Shown one piece after another: positions 2,296 to 24,928 of a stretch of 38,503 bases of DNA. The notes beneath the pieces were generated by a model. It was not told where the DNA came from. It did no database searches and saw only the letters and a list, made by a program, of their open reading frames with translations. The stretch lies in sequence record DRR378314_1976; one strand, given 5' to 3'. Position numbers and translations under genes: made by a program. Position 1 is the first letter of the stretch; each line of letters begins with the position of its first letter.

Positions 2296-3048
2296 TTACA
2301 AGTTAATTTTTGAAGCACCATTTTTTAATATTGAGATGTAGTTTTTAACGTTTTTCAATTCAAATCTGCTGGAAGGGCCAGAAGCACTAATGCTGCCAAT
2401 TAACTTATGGTTTTTGTTAAAAATAGGAATGGCAATACAAATTAAACCCAGTTCAAACTCTTCTAAGTCCAATGCATATCCTTGTTTTTTTGTTTTATTT
2501 AATTGAATTAATAACTCTTTTTTATTGGTGATTGTGTTTTTAGTGTAGGAATTAAAAGTAATCGAATTTAATAAGCTTTCTTTTTTTGTTTCTGAAGAAA
2601 AAGCAAGTAATACCTTGCCAATTGCAGTGGCATGAATTGGTTGGTAGGAACCTACTGTTGTACTAATTTTTAATCCTTGAATGCTTTCTGCTTTATTAAT
2701 GTAAAATACTTGATGCTCTTTTAAAACACCAAACAAAACTGTTTCTTGAATGTTGATTGCAATATCTCTAATCGGAATTTTAGTGGCATTAATTAATGAT
2801 TGGTATAATGAAACTCGATTGCCTAATTCAAATAATTTACTGCCTAAGCTATACTTTTCATTTTCATTTTGTTGAACAGCATTTAAAGAAACTAAGGTGC
2901 TTAATAATCGGTAAGTTGTGCTTTTATTATAGCCAGATTTTGCAGCCAATTCTCTAACACCCCATTCTTTTTTATCTGAAGTAAAAGATTCTAGCAAATT
3001 AAATGCTTTAATTATGGATTGGTTTAGGTTTTTAGAAGCTGTTTCCAT
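2296..3048 (-). CDS. IclR family transcriptional regulator
   Basis: N-terminal HTH (GVRELAAKSGYNKSTTYRLL), HATAIGKVLLAF, GYALDLEEFELGLICIAIPIF, ISASGP. Confidence 0.93.
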   Translation of the reverse strand: METASKNLNQSIIKAFNLLESFTSDKKEWGVRELAAKSGYNKSTTYRLLSTLVSLNAVQQNENEKYSLGSKLFELGNRVSLYQSLINATKIPIRDIAINIQETVLFGVLKEHQVFYINKAESIQGLKISTTVGSYQPIHATAIGKVLLAFSSETKKESLLNSITFNSYTKNTITNKKELLIQLNKTKKQGYALDLEEFELGLICIAIPIFNKNHKLIGSISASGPSSRFELKNVKNYISILKNGASKINL

Positions 3049-3213: not shown

Positions 3214-4473
3214 ATGTATCAAGACAGTTTAGCCTACGCACAGCAACAAGACAAACAAGATAAATTAGCACATTTAAGAACTCAATTTCATATTCCTAAA
3301 GATAAAAACGGGAATGATTGGTTGTATTTTACCGGAAATTCTTTGGGTTTACAACCTAAGAATACTCAGAAGTATATTCAACAAGAATTAGATGATTGGG
3401 CTAATTATGGTGTAGAAGGTCATTTTGAAGCAAAAAATCCTTGGTTGCCATATCATGAGTTTTTGACCGAGAATATGGCAAAGATTGTGGGAGCAAATCC
3501 ATTAGAGGTTGTTATTATGAATACATTAACAACCAACCTGCATTTGTTAATGGTGTCTTTTTATCAGCCAATCAAAAAGAAATATAAAATTGTTATTGAA
3601 TCTGATGCCTTTCCATCAGATAGATATGCGGTGCAATCGCAATTAAAATTTCATGGATTTGATGTAGATGAAGGATTGATAGAATGGAAACCGAGAGCTG
3701 GAGAAGAATTGCTAAATATTGAAGATTTAGAATCAATTGTTGAAGAGCAAGGAGATGAAATAGCATTGCTACTAATTGGTGGTGTAAATTATTACACTGG
3801 GCAATATCTAGATTTGAAAAGAATTGCAAAAATTGGTCATGCTAAAGAATGTATGGTCGGAATAGATTTAGCACATGGAGCGGGAAATATTTCTCCAGAG
3901 TTACACGATTCTGGGGTTGATTTTGCTGCTTGGTGTACTTATAAATATTTGAATTCTGGGCCAGGAAGTTTAGGTGGCTTGTTTGTACATGAAAAGCATG
4001 CGCATAATAAAGATTTACCACGTTTTTCAGGTTGGTGGAATCATAACAAAGAAACGCGTTTTAACATGCGTCAGCCATTTGATGTAATGCCTGGAGCTGA
4101 AGGTTGGCAATTGTCTAATCCTCCAATTTTATCCATGGCAGCAATTAAAGCATCACTAGATATGTTTGCTGAGGTTGGTATGAAAGCATTGCGTGATAAA
4201 TCAGAAAAGTTAACAGGCTATTTTGAGTTTCTAATCAATCAAATAGATTCTGATAGTATTAAAATTATCACTCCTTCTAATCCAAAAGAAAGAGGTTGTC
4301 AATTGTCTATACAAGTTAAAGATGCAGATAAAAGTTTGCATCAAAAACTAACAGATAATAATATCATTACAGATTGGCGAGAGCCAGATGTGATCCGTTG
4401 TGCACCAGTGCCAATGTATAACAGTTTTGAAGATGTGTTTAGAATGGTGAGTATTTTAAAAGGTTTGTTATAA
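3214..4473 (+). CDS. kynU: Kynureninase (3-hydroxykynurenine-preferring type)
   Basis: YFTGNSLGLQP, FPSDRY, DLAHGAGN, WCTYKYLNSGPG, GWW, LSNPP, RGCQLS, DWREPDVIR. Confidence 0.97.
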   Translation: MYQDSLAYAQQQDKQDKLAHLRTQFHIPKDKNGNDWLYFTGNSLGLQPKNTQKYIQQELDDWANYGVEGHFEAKNPWLPYHEFLTENMAKIVGANPLEVVIMNTLTTNLHLLMVSFYQPIKKKYKIVIESDAFPSDRYAVQSQLKFHGFDVDEGLIEWKPRAGEELLNIEDLESIVEEQGDEIALLLIGGVNYYTGQYLDLKRIAKIGHAKECMVGIDLAHGAGNISPELHDSGVDFAAWCTYKYLNSGPGSLGGLFVHEKHAHNKDLPRFSGWWNHNKETRFNMRQPFDVMPGAEGWQLSNPPILSMAAIKASLDMFAEVGMKALRDKSEKLTGYFEFLINQIDSDSIKIITPSNPKERGCQLSIQVKDADKSLHQKLTDNNIITDWREPDVIRCAPVPMYNSFEDVFRMVSILKGLL

Positions 4474-4474
4474 A

Positions 4475-5881
4475 ATGAATAAACAAGAGAATATATTAAT
4501 AATTGGAGCTGGATTATGTGGCTCATTATTAGCCTTACGTTTAGCACAAAGAGGCTTTAAAGTTGATGTTTATGAAAGGAGGCCAGATTTACGTATTACA
4601 GATATTTCTGCTGGAAGATCTATAAATTTAGCTTTGTCAGATAGAGGTTTTAAAGCTTTACGGTTGGCAGGTGTTGAAGAAAAGGCGCGTGAAATTTGTA
4701 TACCAATGTATGGACGATTAGTTCATGACATAGCTGGAAATACATTTGCGTCAAATTATTCTGGAAGAGAAGGGGAATATATCAATTCGATATCCAGAGG
4801 AGATTTAAACGGAATTTTACTAACAGAAGCTGAAGAACATGAAAATGTATCGATTCATTTTAATAAGAAGTGTGTTAAAATAGATATTGAAAATTCAATA
4901 GCAACTTTTGAAGATTATATAACAAAAGAGCATATAAGTGTTAATCCTGATGTGATTTTTGGAACAGATGGAGCTGGTTCTGTTTTACGTAAAAGCTATT
5001 ATTTAGAAAGAAAATTTTTGTTTAGTTATTCACAAGAATATTTAACACATGGTTATAAAGAATTAGAAATTCCGGCAGATGTTAATGGCAAACACCAAAT
5101 AAGTAAAGATCATTTACATATTTGGCCTCGTGGTGAGTATATGTTAATTGCTTTGCCAAATATGGATGGTAGTTTTACCGTAACTTTATTTTTAGGAAAT
5201 GAAGAAGGTGTGTACCATTTTAAAGGTTTAAATTCTGAAGAAAAAATAGCTCACTTTTTTAAAGAACAGTTTCCGGATGCATTAGAATTAATTCCAAATA
5301 TTTCTGATGAATTTGCAAACAATCCAACAGGTGCTCTAGGAACAGTGAAATGTTCGCCTTGGTCATATAAAAATAATACATTAATTATGGGAGATGCTGC
5401 ACATGCTGTAGTGCCATTTTATGGGCAAGGTATGAATGCTTCTTTTGAAGATGTAGTTGTTTTGGATGAGGTTTTAGATCAAAATTTGAATAATTGGGAA
5501 GCAACTTTTAAAGCTTATGAAAAGAAAAGGAAAAATGATGCAGATGCTATTGGAGAATTGGCAGTAGAGAATTATTATGAAATGCGAGATCATGTTGCAA
5601 ACCCACTTTTTAAGCAAAAACGTAAAATAGAAATGGACTTGGAGAAGAATTTTCCTTCTGTATACTTTTCTAAATATTCTATGGTAACGTTTAATGCTGA
5701 AATTGGATATTATGAAGCCATGATGAAAGGAAGAGCACAGGATAAAGCATTATTAAACATGATTGCTGATAAAAATATATCAACATCTATGGAGATGACA
5801 AAAGATGAATTAGCAATTGTGTTGCAAAAAGTACAAGAAGAAACCAATACAATTTTGCAAGAAGATAAAACGCTGGATTGA
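4475..5881 (+). CDS. kmo: Kynurenine 3-monooxygenase
   Basis: GAGLCG Rossmann motif, GRSINLALSDRG, GYKELEIP, LHIWPRG, GDAAHAVVPFYGQGMNASFED. Confidence 0.95.
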   Translation: MNKQENILIIGAGLCGSLLALRLAQRGFKVDVYERRPDLRITDISAGRSINLALSDRGFKALRLAGVEEKAREICIPMYGRLVHDIAGNTFASNYSGREGEYINSISRGDLNGILLTEAEEHENVSIHFNKKCVKIDIENSIATFEDYITKEHISVNPDVIFGTDGAGSVLRKSYYLERKFLFSYSQEYLTHGYKELEIPADVNGKHQISKDHLHIWPRGEYMLIALPNMDGSFTVTLFLGNEEGVYHFKGLNSEEKIAHFFKEQFPDALELIPNISDEFANNPTGALGTVKCSPWSYKNNTLIMGDAAHAVVPFYGQGMNASFEDVVVLDEVLDQNLNNWEATFKAYEKKRKNDADAIGELAVENYYEMRDHVANPLFKQKRKIEMDLEKNFPSVYFSKYSMVTFNAEIGYYEAMMKGRAQDKALLNMIADKNISTSMEMTKDELAIVLQKVQEETNTILQEDKTLD

Positions 5882-5885
5882 GTTA

Positions 5886-6416
5886 ATGCAAACATATATT
5901 GTCATATTAAGAGGGGTTAATGTATCTGGAAATAATAAACTTCCAATGGCAGAACTCCGTTATTTATTGAATGATTTAAAGTTTGAAAATGTGCAGACCT
6001 ATATTCAGAGTGGAAATATTGTTTTAAATTCTGAATTGTCTAAAGACGAAGTTATTGAAAGTGTAAAGAATGGAATTGTATCAAAATTTGGGTTTAATGT
6101 TGCTGTATTGGCAAAAACCATTTCAGAATGGGAAAATGCGATTGCAAATAATCCATATCCAACTAATAATCATAAAATCGTATCTTTTACTTTTTTAAGT
6201 GAAATGTCAAAAGAAACAACGGTTGAAGTGAATATTACTAATGATGATCGGTATTCTGTAATTAATGACATGGTGTACATGTACTGTCCAGACGGATTTG
6301 GAAAAACAAAATTGACTAATAATTTGTTTGAAAGAAAGTTAAAAGTAACAGCTACTTCTCGTAATTATAGAACAACTATAAAATTGTTAGAGATAGCAAA
6401 AAACAATAATAACTAA
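5886..6416 (+). CDS. DUF1697 family protein
   Basis: LRGVNVSG..KLPMAEL, VQTYIQSGN, ATSRNYRT. Start set at ATG 5886, just after the kmo stop. Confidence 0.88.
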   Translation: MQTYIVILRGVNVSGNNKLPMAELRYLLNDLKFENVQTYIQSGNIVLNSELSKDEVIESVKNGIVSKFGFNVAVLAKTISEWENAIANNPYPTNNHKIVSFTFLSEMSKETTVEVNITNDDRYSVINDMVYMYCPDGFGKTKLTNNLFERKLKVTATSRNYRTTIKLLEIAKNNNN

Positions 6417-7552
6417 TGAAATATACTATTATTGGCGCTGGTATTGGAGGTTTAACAACCGCATTAGCTTTTCAAAAAAGAGGAATAGATTATGAGATTT
6501 TTGAAAGAGCAACTGAATTAAATGAAGTTGGAGCAGGAATTTGGTTAGCACCAAATGCATTGCAAGTATTAGAATCGTTAGATATTTTAGATGAGGTGCA
6601 AGTAAATGGGAATAATATTGATAGAATTACAATTGGAAAACCAAATTTAGAACCGATATCCGATAGCATACAAGATAACATTGAGAAAACCTTTGGGTAT
6701 ACAACAGTTGCAATACATAGAGCAAGGTTACAGAAAGTGTTGTTTGATAAAATCCCATCAAATAAAATTCAATTAAATAAAGGTTTTCATTCATATCAAG
6801 AATTACAATCGGGTAAAATAAAAGTTGTTTTTGATGACAAAAGTAGTGTTGAAACTGATTTTTTAATTGGAGCAGATGGAATCAATTCAAAAGTTAGAAG
6901 TCAGCTTTTTCCTTATAGTAGAGCAAGGTATTCTGGACAAACTTGTTGGAGAGGAATTGCAGATATTCAACTAGAGGATAAATATAAGCATCGAGGATAT
7001 GAATTGTGGGGAAATCAAATTAGGTTTGGAATCTCTAGAATTTCAGAAGGAAAAGTATATTGGTTTGCTGTGGTTTTGGCTGAAGAGAATAGTAAGCAAA
7101 ATGCTAGTTTAGTAAAAAAAGATTTAACTGCATTATTTTCAGACTTTCATCCGTTAATAAATATGTTAATTAATCAAACGCCTCTTGATAAAATCATAAA
7201 AAGTGATATCAATGACTTGAAACCATTAAATAAATGGTATGAAAATAATATTTGTTTAATTGGTGATGCTGGACACGCAACTACACCTAATATGGGACAA
7301 GGAGGAGCTCAGGCTATAGAAGATGCTTTTTACCTAAGTAATGCAATAAAAGAAGTTGAAGGAAATGCTTTTGAATTATTTCAGAAAAGAAGAATGAAAA
7401 AAGTTAATGCCATTGTAAAGCAATCTTGGAATACTGGGAAAATAGCTCATTGGAAATATGGTAGAAATGCAAGAAATTTTATCATACAAAATATGCCTAA
7501 CAATGTTATAGAAAAGAAAATGATAAAATTATACGAATTAGAACAATTTTAG
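6416..7552 (+). CDS. FAD-dependent monooxygenase (group A flavoprotein aromatic hydroxylase), substrate unknown
   Basis: GAGIGG, GAGIWL.PNA, IGADGINS, LIGDAGHATTPNMGQGGAQAIEDA. TAATG overlap with DUF1697. Confidence 0.88.
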   Translation: MKYTIIGAGIGGLTTALAFQKRGIDYEIFERATELNEVGAGIWLAPNALQVLESLDILDEVQVNGNNIDRITIGKPNLEPISDSIQDNIEKTFGYTTVAIHRARLQKVLFDKIPSNKIQLNKGFHSYQELQSGKIKVVFDDKSSVETDFLIGADGINSKVRSQLFPYSRARYSGQTCWRGIADIQLEDKYKHRGYELWGNQIRFGISRISEGKVYWFAVVLAEENSKQNASLVKKDLTALFSDFHPLINMLINQTPLDKIIKSDINDLKPLNKWYENNICLIGDAGHATTPNMGQGGAQAIEDAFYLSNAIKEVEGNAFELFQKRRMKKVNAIVKQSWNTGKIAHWKYGRNARNFIIQNMPNNVIEKKMIKLYELEQF

Positions 7553-7558
7553 AAAAGA

Positions 7559-7963
7559 ATGGAAGAAAAAAAAGTTACACCAAGAGGCGCCTATCCACAT
7601 GTAAAAATAGTAGGAGATTTTATATTTGTTTCAGGGACTAGTTCTAGAAGACCAGACAATAGCATTGCTGGTGTTGATATTATTGATGAAATGGGGACTA
7701 AATACTTAAACGCAGAAACACAAACTAGAGAAGTGTTGAATAATATTGATAAGAATTTACAAAAAGTTGGAGCGAGTATTAAAGATGTAGTAGATGTGTC
7801 TACTTTTTTGGTTAATATGAATGATTTTGCAGGGTATAATAAAGCTTATGCTGAATTTTTTGATAAGGAAACTGGCCCAACAAGAACTACCGTAGCTGTA
7901 CATCAATTACCACATCCAGATTTAGTTGTGGAAATTAAAGTAACAGTCTATAAGAAAAGCTAA
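7559..7963 (+). CDS. RidA/YjgF family protein, probable 2-aminomuconate deaminase (NbaF/AmnD-like)
   Basis: [36 protein letters not shown]; operon context. Confidence 0.85.
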
Positions 7964-7966
7964 TAA

Positions 7967-9409
7967 ATGAATATTCAAAACTACATTAACGGAAAATTTG
8001 TAAACCCAATAAATGGGAATTATATAGATAATTACAATCCAGCAAATGGAGAAGTATATGGTCAAATTCCAAATTCATCAACAGAAGATGTTGAGTATGC
8101 ATATGAAGCTGCTAAACAAGCTTTTTCTAAATGGTCAAAAACTACATTAGAAGAACGAAGTAGAATTTTAATTAAAATTTCCGAATTATTAGAATCTAAT
8201 TTAGACCGTTTTGCAGGTGCAGAAAGTATTGATAATGGAAAGCCAATTGATTTGGCAAAACAAATTGATATTCCGAGAGCGGCAAGTAATTTTCGATTTT
8301 TTGGAAATGCAATTACACAGTTTGCTTCAGAATCTCATGAAAGTGTAGGGCAAAATGCAATTAATTTTACACTACGCAAACCTATTGGAGTTGTTGGATG
8401 TATATCTCCATGGAATTTGCCTTTGTATTTGTTTACTTGGAAAATTGCACCAGCAATTGCTGCTGGAAATTGTGTAGTTGCAAAACCAAGTGAAGTAACA
8501 CCATTAACAGCATTCTTATTAGGTAGAATTTGTACAGAAGCAGGTTTGCCAAATGGAGTTTTAAATATTGTTCATGGTTTAGGAACCACAACTGGGCAAG
8601 CAATTGTTGAACATCAAAATATCAAAGCAATCTCATTTACTGGTGGAACTACAACTGGGGCACATATTGCCAGTATTGCTGCACCAATGTTTAAAAAGCT
8701 TTCATTGGAGCTAGGAGGAAAAAATCCAAATATCATTTTTTCAGATTGTGATTATGATAAAATGCTAGAAACAACATTACGTTCATCTTTTGCAAATCAA
8801 GGTCAAATTTGTTTGTGTGGAAGTAGAATCTTAGTTGAAGAGTCAATCTATGAAAAGTTTAAGATAGATTTTGTTCAGAAGGTAAAACAATTAAAAGTTG
8901 GACATCCTTCAGAAGAAACAACAAATATTGGAGCTTTAGTTTCAAAATCACATTTAGAAAAAGTTGAATCTTATATTAAATTAGCTCAGGATGAAGGAGG
9001 AAAAATATTATGTGGTGGATTAGAAGTTACTGTGCCTGGATTTGAGAATGGTTATTATTTACAGCCTACAGTTATTGAAGTAACATCTAATGATTGTAGT
9101 ATAAATCAAGAAGAGGTTTTTGGACCTGTAGTTACAATCATGTCTTTTAAAACAGATAAAGAGGCTTTGTACTTAGCAAACGATGTAAAATACGGATTGT
9201 CTGCAACGGTTTGGACTAACAACTTAAATAGAACCATGCAGTTTTCTCAACAGTTACAAGCCGGAATTGTTTGGGTAAACACATGGATGCTTCGTGATTT
9301 AAGAACTCCTTTTGGAGGAGCAAAAGCATCTGGAGTAGGTAGAGAAGGTGGTTTTGAAGCATTACGATTCTTTACCGAACCAAAAAATATATGTATCAAA
9401 TACGAATAA
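7967..9409 (+). CDS. 2-aminomuconate 6-semialdehyde dehydrogenase (ALDH8/HMSDH family)
   Basis: DIPRAASNFRFF, ISPWNLPLYL, LELGGKNP, NQGQICLCGSR, WMLRDLRTPFGG; operon context. Confidence 0.88.
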   Translation: MNIQNYINGKFVNPINGNYIDNYNPANGEVYGQIPNSSTEDVEYAYEAAKQAFSKWSKTTLEERSRILIKISELLESNLDRFAGAESIDNGKPIDLAKQIDIPRAASNFRFFGNAITQFASESHESVGQNAINFTLRKPIGVVGCISPWNLPLYLFTWKIAPAIAAGNCVVAKPSEVTPLTAFLLGRICTEAGLPNGVLNIVHGLGTTTGQAIVEHQNIKAISFTGGTTTGAHIASIAAPMFKKLSLELGGKNPNIIFSDCDYDKMLETTLRSSFANQGQICLCGSRILVEESIYEKFKIDFVQKVKQLKVGHPSEETTNIGALVSKSHLEKVESYIKLAQDEGGKILCGGLEVTVPGFENGYYLQPTVIEVTSNDCSINQEEVFGPVVTIMSFKTDKEALYLANDVKYGLSATVWTNNLNRTMQFSQQLQAGIVWVNTWMLRDLRTPFGGAKASGVGREGGFEALRFFTEPKNICIKYE

Positions 9410-9418
9410 GAAGTTATT

Positions 9419-10189
9419 ATGAATTTAGAAATAAAAAATAAAAACGCATTGGTTTGCGGAAGTACACAAGGAATTGGTAAAGCATCTGCTTTAGGATTGG
9501 CAGCAGAAGGTGTTAATGTTACTTTAATTGCAAGAAATGAAGAAAAGTTGAAAGCTGTTTTAAAAGAATTGCCAGATGGAAACCATAATTATATTGTTGC
9601 AGACTTTTCAAATCCAGAAGAATTAAAAGAAAAGATTACAGCGTCAAATTTAAATTTCCATATTTTAGTAAATAATACAGGAGGTCCTGCAGGAGGCCCA
9701 ATATTTAATGCAAAGCTAGAAGAGTTTGAGTCAGCATTTACACAACATTTAAAATGTAACCATGTATTGGCACAAGCAATTGTTCCGTTTATGAAAGAAG
9801 CAGGATTTGGAAGAATAATCAATGTGATTTCTACTTCAGTTAAACAACCGTTAGATGGTTTAGGAGTTTCAAATACTATTCGAGGAGCAGTGGCAAGTTG
9901 GTCTAAAACTTTAGCTAATGAGTTAGGTCAATTTGGTATTACAGTTAACAATGTTTTACCAGGGGCAACCGGTACAGAACGTTTGAATGAAATTATCAAT
10001 AATAAAGCAAATAAAACAGGATTATCTGTTGATGAGGTTTCTAAAAATATGATGGATGCTTCACCAGCAAAACGATTTGCAAAACCAGAAGAGATTGCAA
10101 ATGCTGTAGTCTTTTTAGCAAGTGAAAAAGCAAGTTTTATCAACGGAATTAATGTCCCAGTTGATGGGGGAAGAACAAAATCTTTGTAG
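9419..10189 (+). CDS. SDR family oxidoreductase with atypical active site
   Basis: GSTQGIG, VNNTGGP, SNTIR in place of YxxxK, NNVLPG, VDGG. Confidence 0.88.
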   Translation: MNLEIKNKNALVCGSTQGIGKASALGLAAEGVNVTLIARNEEKLKAVLKELPDGNHNYIVADFSNPEELKEKITASNLNFHILVNNTGGPAGGPIFNAKLEEFESAFTQHLKCNHVLAQAIVPFMKEAGFGRIINVISTSVKQPLDGLGVSNTIRGAVASWSKTLANELGQFGITVNNVLPGATGTERLNEIINNKANKTGLSVDEVSKNMMDASPAKRFAKPEEIANAVVFLASEKASFINGINVPVDGGRTKSL

Positions 10190-10210
10190 ATTTATAAAAA
10201 ACAGAAAGTC

Positions 10211-10741
10211 ATGAGTAAACTAGTATCGCCTTTAAATTTTAAAAAATGGATTGATGAAAATCGTCATTTGCTAAAACCACCAGTAGGAAATAAATGTGTT
10301 TGGAAAGACGGAGAGTTTATAATTATGGTTGTTGGTGGGCCAAATAGTAGAAAAGATTATCATTATAATGAAACGCCAGAATTCTTTTACCAAGTAGAAG
10401 GAGATATGGTGTTAAAGATTATTGATTATGATGGAAAACAACAAGATGTAGCAATTAACGAAGGAGATATTTATTTGTTGCCAGCAAAAGTGCCACACTC
10501 GCCACAGCGAAAAGCAAACACTGTTGGTTTGGTGATTGAATATCCGCGTTCTGAAGGGATGCTTGATGCATTAGAATGGTATTGCGAAAATTGTGGAAAT
10601 CAATTGTATAGAGAGCCATTTGCGTTGGATAATATAGAAACTGATATGCCAATTATTTTTGATAAATATTATTCTGATTCAAAAAAATGTACTTGCTCTA
10701 ATTGTGGAACGGTGATGGAATCTCCTAATAAAATTTTATAA
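10211..10741 (+). CDS. nbaC: 3-hydroxyanthranilate 3,4-dioxygenase
   Basis: LKPPVGNK, VGGPNSRKDYHYNETPEFFYQ, VPHSPQR, and two CxxC (CENC, CSNC) for the rubredoxin-like site. Confidence 0.96.
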   Translation: MSKLVSPLNFKKWIDENRHLLKPPVGNKCVWKDGEFIIMVVGGPNSRKDYHYNETPEFFYQVEGDMVLKIIDYDGKQQDVAINEGDIYLLPAKVPHSPQRKANTVGLVIEYPRSEGMLDALEWYCENCGNQLYREPFALDNIETDMPIIFDKYYSDSKKCTCSNCGTVMESPNKIL

Positions 10742-11824
10742 ATGAAACGTAAACTTAGAATAAACGGTCATTCACATTTATTGCCATATCCAGAACAGAT
10801 TCCTCAGTTTATGAAAGACAAGGAAATATTTTGGGTAGATGATGAGCGTAAACATATGTTGCAAAAAGGATGGAAACGCCCAGTAACAGATTCGAGTTTC
10901 TTTTTAGATGAGAAGTTAGCGTGGATGGAGAAGAATAATTTGGATCACGCTGTGGTATTGAATCTTTCTCAATTATACGGAAATGGATTACGTTTGGAAG
11001 AAATGAAGAAGGCTTTGCGTTTTCAGAATGATTTCAATGCAAAAGTTCAACATGATCATCCATCTAAATTTACTTGTGGATTTGTAGTGCATCCAGGATT
11101 TATTCAAGGTGCATTATGGGAAATAGAACGTTGTGTAGTTGAGTTAGGATTGAAGGTATTGTGTTTACCTACACACTTTATGGATTCTATTGGTCAATGG
11201 CGATGTGTATTTGACAAAGAAAATGATCCAATTTTCGAATTGGCAAATAAATATAAATTGGCGATCGAAATTCATCCGTATGACGGAGATAAAATGATAA
11301 AATTAGAAAATACCAACTGGCGTTTTCATTTAATTTGGATGCTGGCACAATGTGGAGATGCATATCATTTTTATACTTTAAACGGAATGCAAGAGCGTTT
11401 TCCGAATATTCGAACTTGTTTTGCACATGGAGGTCAATTAGCGCAAATGAACTTAGGAAGAAGAATTCAAGGATTTGATGGAAGACCAGATTTATTTGAA
11501 GGGAAAACACATCCTAGAAAAGCAGTTGGTCATCCAAATATTTATTTTGATACGTTGGTACACGATACAGATTCGCTAAAATTGATGATAGAACGACAAG
11601 GCTCTAATCAGGTAATTATGGGTTTAGATGACCCGTATCCTTTAGGAGAAATGGAAAGTGATGCGCAATCTTCTTATCCAGGTAAGTTATTAGATTTAGC
11701 TATTGAGCGAAATTTAATCAATCAGAAAGAATATGATGAAATTTGGGAGGATAACACGCTGCGTTGGTTATTTGGAAATGATGAACAAGCAAAAAAAGAT
11801 TTGATTCAAAAAATAGTATCATAA
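10742..11824 (+). CDS. Amidohydrolase family protein, probable 2-amino-3-carboxymuconate-6-semialdehyde decarboxylase (ACMSD)
   Basis: N-terminal HxH (GHSH), IHP, FAHGG, YFDTLVHD, GLDDPYPLGE; directly follows nbaC. Confidence 0.88.
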   Translation: MKRKLRINGHSHLLPYPEQIPQFMKDKEIFWVDDERKHMLQKGWKRPVTDSSFFLDEKLAWMEKNNLDHAVVLNLSQLYGNGLRLEEMKKALRFQNDFNAKVQHDHPSKFTCGFVVHPGFIQGALWEIERCVVELGLKVLCLPTHFMDSIGQWRCVFDKENDPIFELANKYKLAIEIHPYDGDKMIKLENTNWRFHLIWMLAQCGDAYHFYTLNGMQERFPNIRTCFAHGGQLAQMNLGRRIQGFDGRPDLFEGKTHPRKAVGHPNIYFDTLVHDTDSLKLMIERQGSNQVIMGLDDPYPLGEMESDAQSSYPGKLLDLAIERNLINQKEYDEIWEDNTLRWLFGNDEQAKKDLIQKIVS

Positions 11825-11860
11825 AAAAAAGCCTTCTCCATTGAGAAGGCTTTTTTTTTT
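11823..11860. terminator. Bidirectional intrinsic terminator ending the kynurenine and ftsH operons
   Basis: A8-gccttctc-catt-gagaaggc-T10. Confidence 0.93.
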
Positions 11861-24472: not shown

Positions 24473-24928
24473 CTATTTATTTTTAAGTTTAATTGCTTTA
24501 TGAATAGCTTTTCTTATTCTAGGATACGTTCCGCATCTACATATGTTTCCGCTCATAGCATTGTCAATGTCTTCATCTGTAGGGTTTGGATTGCTATTCA
24601 ATAAAGAAGTTGCTGCAATTAATTGCCCAGATTGACAATATCCACATTGAGGTACATTTATTTCTTCCCAGGCTTCTCTTAAATATTCAAGATTTTTAGA
24701 TTCTCCTTCTATTGTTGTAATTTGTTTTCCATAACCATAGCTTACAGGTAAGCTACATGATCTAACTACTTCATTGTCAATAAGAATAGAGCAAGCGCCA
24801 CATTGGCTTACTCCACAGCCATATTTTGTGCCTGTTAACCCTATAATATCTCTAATTGCCCACAATAGAGGCATATCTGAAGGAGCATCTATATTGTGAC
24901 TTTTTCCGTTAATTGTGAGTGTTTTCAA
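24473..24928 (-). CDS. [2Fe-2S]-binding subunit (IorA-like)
   Basis: GTKYGCGVSQCGACS, RSC, QCGYCQSGQ, NICRCGTY; TTG start. Confidence 0.94.
   Translation of the reverse strand: MKTLTINGKSHNIDAPSDMPLLWAIRDIIGLTGTKYGCGVSQCGACSILIDNEVVRSCSLPVSYGYGKQITTIEGESKNLEYLREAWEEINVPQCGYCQSGQLIAATSLLNSNPNPTDEDIDNAMSGNICRCGTYPRIRKAIHKAIKLKNK

Follow-up and report, generated by a model that had tools for sequence, protein, structure and literature searches.

A tyrosine-less short-chain dehydrogenase/reductase of bacteroidotal kynurenine gene clusters as a candidate 2-oxohex-3-enedioate reductase

In the closest described systems, the kynurenine pathway is left downstream of 2-aminomuconate by different routes. 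The nba/amn/dmp route of Proteobacteria and Actinobacteria employs 3-hydroxyanthranilate 3,4-dioxygenase (HAO), ACMSD, 2-aminomuconate-6-semialdehyde dehydrogenase (AMSDH) and an AmnE-type 2-aminomuconate deaminase (AMD), and it exits through the DmpH decarboxylase, the DmpE hydratase, the DmpG aldolase and the DmpF dehydrogenase. In Metazoa, according to a preprint of June 2026 (10.64898/2026.06.05.730449), ASPDH (AMR) reduces 2-aminomuconate itself to 2-aminohex-3-enedioate and no deaminase is present; for Fungi, the same text leaves open the step that follows the deaminase (10.64898/2026.06.05.730449). An uncharacterised short-chain dehydrogenase/reductase (SDR), ATEG_10008, is syntenic with the Aspergillus 3-hydroxyanthranilate cluster (PMC7842363). 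Textbook-type tryptophan maps, for example in the figure legend of a 2026 review, carry an "oxalocrotonate reductase"; no gene assigned to the reduction of 2-oxohex-3-enedioate/oxalocrotonate to 2-oxoadipate was found for any organism in our searches, which mostly left subscription journals outside. Here these systems are compared with a stretch of 38,503 nucleotides from sequence record DRR378314_1976 (named the window in the following, at its full length), in which an SDR gene (9419-10189, + strand) is embedded in an operon for kynurenine catabolism.

The window operon has HAO, ACMSD, AMSDH and the AmnE-type deaminase in common with the nba/amn/dmp route, and it shares the same intermediate, whereas the genes for the DmpH, DmpE, DmpG and DmpF steps are missing. 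In the best available reading, to which a probability of about 0.5 is given, the SDR is an NADPH-dependent 2-oxohex-3-enedioate reductase yielding 2-oxoadipate; its substrate, product, regiochemistry and cofactor, together with the fate of 2-oxoadipate, are what we infer. It is also proposed, tentatively, that the SDR clade constitutes a third exit from 2-aminomuconate, in which deaminase and SDR would lead to 2-oxoadipate, beside the decarboxylase and the metazoan ASPDH routes. The new observations are the conserved linkage of the SDR to kynurenine genes and the exclusion, at the cluster level, of DmpH, DmpE, DmpG and DmpF.

The original prediction, made from the letters of the window, had assigned to the SDR the C=C reduction that gives 2-oxoadipate, as the completion of an animal-like route. 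The reaction is still plausible, given the linkage, the missing dmp genes and the homology to AerF and BacG discussed below, but the label "animal-like" had to be given up: animals use ASPDH on 2-aminomuconate without a deaminase, according to the preprint (10.64898/2026.06.05.730449), while the operon contains a deaminase, a feature shared with Fungi and Proteobacteria and not with animals. Similarly, the statement that the animal reductase gene was not firmly assigned is outdated, since the same text reports the ASPDH assignment (10.64898/2026.06.05.730449). The metazoan enzyme resembles the proposed SDR in performing an NAD(P)H-dependent reduction right after AMSDH, in a pathway thought to end at 2-oxoadipate/glutaryl-CoA; it differs in its aspartate dehydrogenase-family fold, in acting without prior deamination and in its product, which is not 2-oxoadipate. 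No ASPDH domain is found in the nine operon proteins.

The linkage was revealed by an SDR-anchored scan of metagenome contigs, which gave 80 loci with orthologues 56-79% identical to the window SDR; their open reading frames (ORFs) were called, clustered and labelled by means of the window proteins and Pfam. One or more kynurenine-pathway genes are found within 6 kb of the SDR in 54 of the 80 loci, and in 49 the immediate neighbour of the SDR is itself a pathway gene. Where both flanks of the SDR reach 3 kb or more, a pathway gene is present in 29 of 36 loci, and among the shorter loci in 25 of 44. The value of 54/80 is a lower bound, since one locus (L067), which contains SDR and AMSDH according to tblastn, was dropped by ORF calling. 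The most frequent partners are AMSDH (37 loci), HAO (34) and ACMSD (29), followed by kynureninase (KYNU, 21), AMD (21), kynurenine 3-monooxygenase (KMO, 19), tryptophan dioxygenase (TDO, 6) and a cyclase-family formamidase (3). These genes occur in several orders: AMSDH-SDR-HAO-ACMSD, as in the window; SDR-ACMSD without HAO; a divergent arrangement, where HAO followed by ACMSD points away from SDR, an M19 peptidase gene and AMSDH; the longer series TDO-SDR-AMSDH-AMD-HAO-ACMSD-formamidase (KFA); and a bare divergent pair of HAO and SDR. The maintenance of the linkage through at least four gene orders favours a functional tie over the inheritance of one ancestral arrangement. The SDR is a true and conserved component of a kynurenine catabolic cluster of Bacteroidota in which the decarboxylase route is lacking.

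As for the exit route, the probes were Escherichia coli MhpD (DmpE/DmpH family), MhpF (DmpF) and MhpE (DmpG), used in tblastn at E<=1e-3. No homolog was detected in the 80 SDR loci and the 38.5-kb window (933,634 bases), and the absence of decarboxylase, hydratase, aldolase and acylating dehydrogenase genes noted at the outset is borne out across the window. As controls, 10 records of Alpha-, Beta- and Gammaproteobacteria and of Actinomycetota were taken from the 35 plasmids or chromids that carry an AMD homolog (52-64% identity). MhpD-family genes are present in 9 of these 10 clusters, and 7 of them have two MhpD-family genes together with MhpF and MhpE; conversely, none of the 10 contains an SDR more than 28% identical to the query. 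Hence the mutual exclusivity of this SDR clade and dmpH in ACMSD operons, which had been raised with the original prediction, is found at the cluster level in the sampled loci (dmp genes in 0/80 SDR clusters; SDR in 0/10 and MhpD family in 9/10 controls), and it extends to the decarboxylase route. One control, L090 on a Mycetohabitans megaplasmid, has the order AMSDH-deaminase-HAO-ACMSD with neither dmp genes nor SDR within 8 to 10 kb on either side, so that there must be at least one more arrangement or exit. No other recurrent oxidoreductase, CoA ligase/transferase or acyl-CoA dehydrogenase was seen among the annotated neighbours of the SDR clusters, so that the product of the SDR must be usable by general metabolism.

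Classical SDRs have the catalytic tetrad N-S-Y-K. The window SDR lacks both Tyr and Lys: the segment S151-N152-T-I-R155 aligns with the Tyr/Lys positions (YxxxK) of solved SDRs, so that S151 and R155 take their place, while Ser138 is present, as well as R39 in the motif IARN. The replacement and R39 are thus at the positions originally indicated, by alignment. The protein has the usual length of an SDR and keeps the Rossmann/SDR core, with G14, G18 and G20 invariant and N86-x-G88-G89 conserved (the Gly-rich TGxxxGxG and the NNxGG motifs), and both PF00106 and PF13561 exceed their cut-offs. Motif counts were made on 111 sequences, that is the query and 110 full-length proteins (245-275 residues) among the 150 best representatives at 50% identity, 40 of which were excluded by length; at E<=1e-30 there are 726 clusters. 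S151 is present in 106 of the 111, N152 in 97, R155 in 104, R39 in 104, S138 in 103, T186 in 106 and R188 in 97. Judged from these alignments, S-N-x-x-R is the signature of a large Tyr-less SDR subfamily and not a peculiarity of the window protein; the term "atypical" given to it at the outset holds in comparison with classical SDRs, although a whole large group is defined by the motif.

The best solved relatives share S-N-x-x-R: 5va8, 5idx/5idy and 5vps (Burkholderia), 1o5i (TM1169) and 2z1n (APE0912). They match the window SDR with E values from 9.5e-44 to 4.4e-40, 32-39% identity and a TM score of 0.94, and were solved with NADP(H). An AF2 model, obtained from a 34-sequence alignment, has a pLDDT of 95.7 and superposes on the NADP(H) structures of the S-N-x-x-R type at TM 0.94-0.95. 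The use of NADPH, as originally called from R39, is supported by the frequency of this residue and by the NADP(H) found in the nearest structures, and the SDR may be regarded as a putative NADPH enzyme. With the nearest NCBIfam equivalog, NF006212/PRK08339, the SDR scores 183 bits where the cut-off is 339, which by profile score makes it a relative and not an equivalog.

In a FastTree tree of 191 SDRs, rooted on one plasmid homolog, all locus sequences group apart from two plasmid homologs, with weak support at the relevant nodes (0.39-0.54); one pathway-linked SDR branches separately, and the clade boundary is without good support. Residues specific for the clade are F63, A98, N114, I137, V150, M211, P247, R252 and T253, and R252 could be guessed to act as a second carboxylate ligand. 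SDR relatives were not found in viral contigs by the scan, a search of the ESM Atlas returned generic SDR clusters only, and literature searches, one of them poorly targeted, found no account of this SDR in flavobacteria.

Only two of the seven PDB entries that match best by sequence are characterised enzymes, AerF (6jh7, E 2.1e-35) and BacG/YwfH (3u49, E 1.7e-30). AerF is an NADPH-dependent C=C reductase of dihydro-4-hydroxyphenylpyruvate, in the wording of a citing paper, and the PDB title of YwfH describes an NADPH-dependent reductase of bacilysin biosynthesis. Both proteins bind NADPH and share the SDR fold with the window protein, AerF of Microcystis aeruginosa (6jh7/6jha/6jhb) at TM 0.95 and 34% identity, BacG/YwfH of Bacillus subtilis (3u49/3u4c) at TM 0.92 and 29% identity. 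BacG/YwfH presumably performs the conjugate reduction of the same 2-oxo acid as AerF. A C=C reduction is thus favoured for the window SDR, since the closest homologs with a characterised activity use NADPH to reduce the C=C bond of conjugated 2-oxo acids. In a HMMER alignment the Tyr position of AerF is likewise occupied by Ser and the catalytic Lys is lacking; K142, P144, T186 and R188 are kept. The biological contexts are different: AerF and BacG belong to natural-product pathways that start from prephenate and use a substrate with one carboxylate, whereas the SDR is found in aromatic amino-acid catabolism and its proposed substrate has two. Prephenate decarboxylase or cupin isomerase domains (the BacA/BacB and AerD/AerE context) are not found among the nine operon proteins.

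The operon would convert kynurenine to 3-hydroxykynurenine, 3-hydroxyanthranilate, ACMS, 2-aminomuconate semialdehyde and finally 2-aminomuconate. The AmnE-type deaminase would then free ammonia from 2-aminomuconate, generating 2-oxohex-3-enedioate, the keto form of 4-oxalocrotonate; this compound is the deaminase product by NMR assignment in the preprint (10.64898/2026.06.05.730449). In the proposed reaction, the SDR would pass a hydride from NADPH to C4 of the alpha,beta-unsaturated 2-oxo acid, and Ser151, Asn152 and Arg155, which replace Tyr/Lys, would stabilise and protonate the resulting enolate, leading to 2-oxoadipate. When a hydride is added to C4 and the enolate is then protonated, no Tyr is required as general acid; a cationic or hydrogen-bonding pocket would be of benefit, and the S/N/R residues could supply it. 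2-Oxoadipate would finally leave the operon pathway for the housekeeping metabolism that converts 2-oxoadipate to glutaryl-CoA.

Several points weigh against this assignment. 5va8, 5idx, 5vps, 1o5i and 2z1n are structures without assigned function, and the S-N-x-x-R subfamily carries no member of established activity. AerF and BacG share no more than 29-34% identity with the SDR and barely outscore sorbose reductase, a ketoreductase of the classical type (3ai1, E 1.9e-28); moreover, AerF differs from the SDR in having Gly, Gly and Asn for S138, N152 and R155, so that the active sites are not the same. On plasmids, homologs of 38-42% identity adjoin either DHDPS-family genes, accompanied by amidohydrolase and racemase genes, or dihydropyrimidinase and DUF1445 genes; such distant relatives in unrelated clusters indicate that the subfamily is functionally diverse, and the pathway role is limited to the closer clade. 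Neither a 2-oxoadipate dehydrogenase nor a glutaryl-CoA dehydrogenase was seen in the flanks of any SDR cluster. The 80 loci have a GC content of 30-55%, with type IX secretion-type domains among the neighbours, and all of them are probably from one phylum, the Bacteroidota; since the SDR-anchored and the AMD-anchored samples differ in phylum and were drawn from separate collections, the exclusion of the dmp genes may partly reflect taxonomy.

The remaining points of this kind come from the loci themselves, and each of them is related to a different explanation. Seven of the 36 well-flanked loci (L016, L031, L044, L054, L062, L074 and L080) have no pathway gene. Together with the probable origin of all loci from a single phylum, this would agree with an SDR that has no role in the pathway and is a neighbouring housekeeping gene, retained by descent in Bacteroidota. 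Such a bystander is very unlikely, given that the linkage persists in at least four gene orders, in both orientations and at 56-79% identity, and that the SDR lies inside a tightly packed operon.

In six loci (L027, L040, L046, L057, L060 and L069) the SDR is paired with HAO, and neither ACMSD nor AMSDH is found within the available flanks; should the genomes of these loci be devoid of AMSDH, a position of the SDR downstream of that enzyme would be impossible. This finding, and the position of HAO among the tightest and most frequent partners (34 loci), could be explained by an SDR acting as a carbonyl or other reductase or dehydrogenase on another pathway species, for example by reducing the 2-oxo to a 2-hydroxy acid or by clearing a reactive semialdehyde or quinone-imine by-product of 3-hydroxyanthranilate or 3-hydroxykynurenine, with no formation of 2-oxoadipate. 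Most SDRs are carbonyl reductases, and classical ketoreductases score almost level with BacG. We regard this explanation as unlikely: the family as a whole lacks the general-acid Tyr as well as the Lys, which speaks against ordinary carbonyl reduction, and the operon would be left without an exit for 2-oxohex-3-enedioate, as dmp genes were found neither in the 80 loci nor in the window.

The deaminase is missing within 10 kb on either side in 8 of the 19 well-flanked loci that contain SDR with AMSDH or ACMSD; the SDR is present there by construction. The SDR might reduce 2-aminomuconate itself, or its imine tautomer, to 2-aminohex-3-enedioate, 2-iminoadipate or 2-aminoadipate, as a non-homologous counterpart of metazoan ASPDH/AMR, and the RidA-type protein would act before or after it, or merely as a back-up. 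According to the preprint, 2-aminomuconate decays slowly by itself (at pH 7.6 its half-life is about 160 min), and animals do reduce it with NAD(P)H (10.64898/2026.06.05.730449). However, RidA-family genes can sit elsewhere in the genome, and a bona fide AmnE-type deaminase is found one gene from the SDR in the window and in 21 loci; moreover, the window enzyme is 52-64% identical to the deaminases of dmp-type clusters, whose product is 4-oxalocrotonate. To our knowledge, no SDR reduces 2-aminomuconate. This alternative is therefore considered improbable, and the reduction of 2-oxohex-3-enedioate to 2-oxoadipate is preferred.

If the preferred assignment is true, it would provide the first function for a large subfamily of SDRs that lack the tyrosine and include several orphan crystal structures, and it would show how the abundant Bacteroidota of the sea direct carbon from tryptophan to glutaryl-CoA; the same job would be suggested for ATEG_10008, downstream of the fungal deaminase, and the enzyme would possibly be useful to obtain adipate precursors from aromatics. 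The SDR is a small, soluble candidate, with a high-confidence model and a conserved pathway linkage. The one assignment downstream of 2-aminomuconate is that of ASPDH in animals, with another product and with the later steps left open (10.64898/2026.06.05.730449).

The window has a GC content of about 31% and is a flavobacterial sequence; the nearest database relatives of the SDR are from Tenacibaculum and Polaribacter (82-98% identity), and the sequencing data sets that contain this DNA are marine metagenomes. Nine genes on the + strand, at 3214-11824, form the operon, with intergenic gaps from -1 to 21 nt and one terminator; AMSDH and SDR are separated by 9 nt, SDR and HAO by 21 nt. Domain and PDB matches agree with the gene content first read from the window, namely HAO, ACMSD, AMSDH, a RidA-type deaminase and the SDR between AMSDH and HAO. 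These genes are indeed co-directional in the segment 7559-11824, which had been taken as the operon, but the operon begins at 3214 with kynureninase and KMO and is about twice as long. The features are the following.

2296-3048, - strand: IclR-family regulator, divergent from the operon (PF01614 and PF09339; a 68%-identity IclR homolog is at the equivalent place in L003)

3214-4473, + strand: kynureninase, first gene of the operon (PF22580 KYNU_C and PF00266; orthologs in 21/80 SDR loci)

4475-5881, + strand: kynurenine 3-monooxygenase-type FAD monooxygenase (PF01494; 1 nt past kynureninase; orthologs in 19/80 loci)

5886-6416, + strand: DUF1697 protein (PF08002, 123 bits; in 3/80 related loci)

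6416-7552, + strand: second FAD monooxygenase, PRK06753, HpxO- or 3-hydroxybenzoate-6-hydroxylase-like (NF005243, 315 bits against a cut-off of 365)

7559-7963, + strand: AmnE-type 2-aminomuconate deaminase (AMD), RidA fold (PDB 6izh, a 2-aminomuconate deaminase, E 1.5e-49)

7967-9409, + strand: 2-aminomuconate-6-semialdehyde dehydrogenase, AMSDH (PF00171; best NCBIfam model TIGR03216, 555 bits against a cut-off of 693)

9419-10189, + strand: Tyr-less S-N-x-x-R SDR, candidate NADPH-dependent 2-oxohex-3-enedioate reductase (PF13561 and PF00106)

10211-10741, + strand: 3-hydroxyanthranilate 3,4-dioxygenase, HAO (NF009763, 267 bits against a cut-off of 220; the TIGR03037 cut-off is also exceeded)

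10742-11824, + strand: ACMSD (PF04909; best PDB match human ACMSD, E 1.4e-27)

11823-11858, no strand assigned: bidirectional intrinsic terminator between ACMSD and a convergent YceI-like gene (A-tract, 16-bp hairpin, T-tract)

The strong terminator described at the end of the operon corresponds to this last hairpin, which folds with -20.2 kcal/mol (z -6.4) and was not equalled in stability by any of 200 shuffles; it was detected by folding, while a consensus terminator scan missed it. Concerning the enzymes, the name KMO for the product of 4475-5881 is a probable one, based on the surrounding genes and on homology to the gene linked to KYNU in related loci. The best model for the aldehyde dehydrogenase at the AMSDH position (7967-9409) is a 2-hydroxymuconic semialdehyde dehydrogenase. 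The window ACMSD is nearer to the human enzyme (E 1.4e-27) than to Pseudomonas ACMSD (E 6.8e-9); its identity with the control ACMSDs (L085-L094) is only 23-24%, whereas between the same sets AMD shows 55-64% and AMSDH 41-45%. Neither tryptophan dioxygenase nor formamidase is encoded in the 38.5-kb window.

The DUF1697 gene and the second FAD monooxygenase gene (5886-7552) are wedged between the KMO and the deaminase genes. No ortholog of this monooxygenase (6416-7552) was labelled in the 80 SDR loci; as a guess, it could broaden the substrates of the operon, for example through anthranilate hydroxylation.

Other genes accompany the related clusters. A class-I O-methyltransferase (PF01596) is encoded immediately 3' of ACMSD in 13 of the 80 loci (for instance, L014:11921-12562); the window has none, and its operon closes with the terminator. 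In three loci, L038, L042 and L055, an M19 "membrane dipeptidase" gene lies between SDR and AMSDH (for instance, L042:10764-11771) and no RidA-type deaminase is found within 10 kb on either side; the M19 gene might be a replacement for the deaminase there. Small GIY-YIG or DUF559 endonuclease-like ORFs are found inside otherwise collinear kynurenine operons (L019:9636-9953, L006:8045-8362 and L013:3914-4315), suggesting selfish insertions; the sporadic inserts of related operons (GNAT, GIY-YIG, DUF559, DUF6500 and thioesterase) are not conserved. Finally, two further genes lie 10-15 kb downstream of the window operon: a molybdopterin-dependent oxidoreductase (PF02738 and PF20256; 22278-24928), beside a small unannotated ORF (24473-24928), and a PLP-dependent amino-acid decarboxylase (PF00282; 25697-27085).

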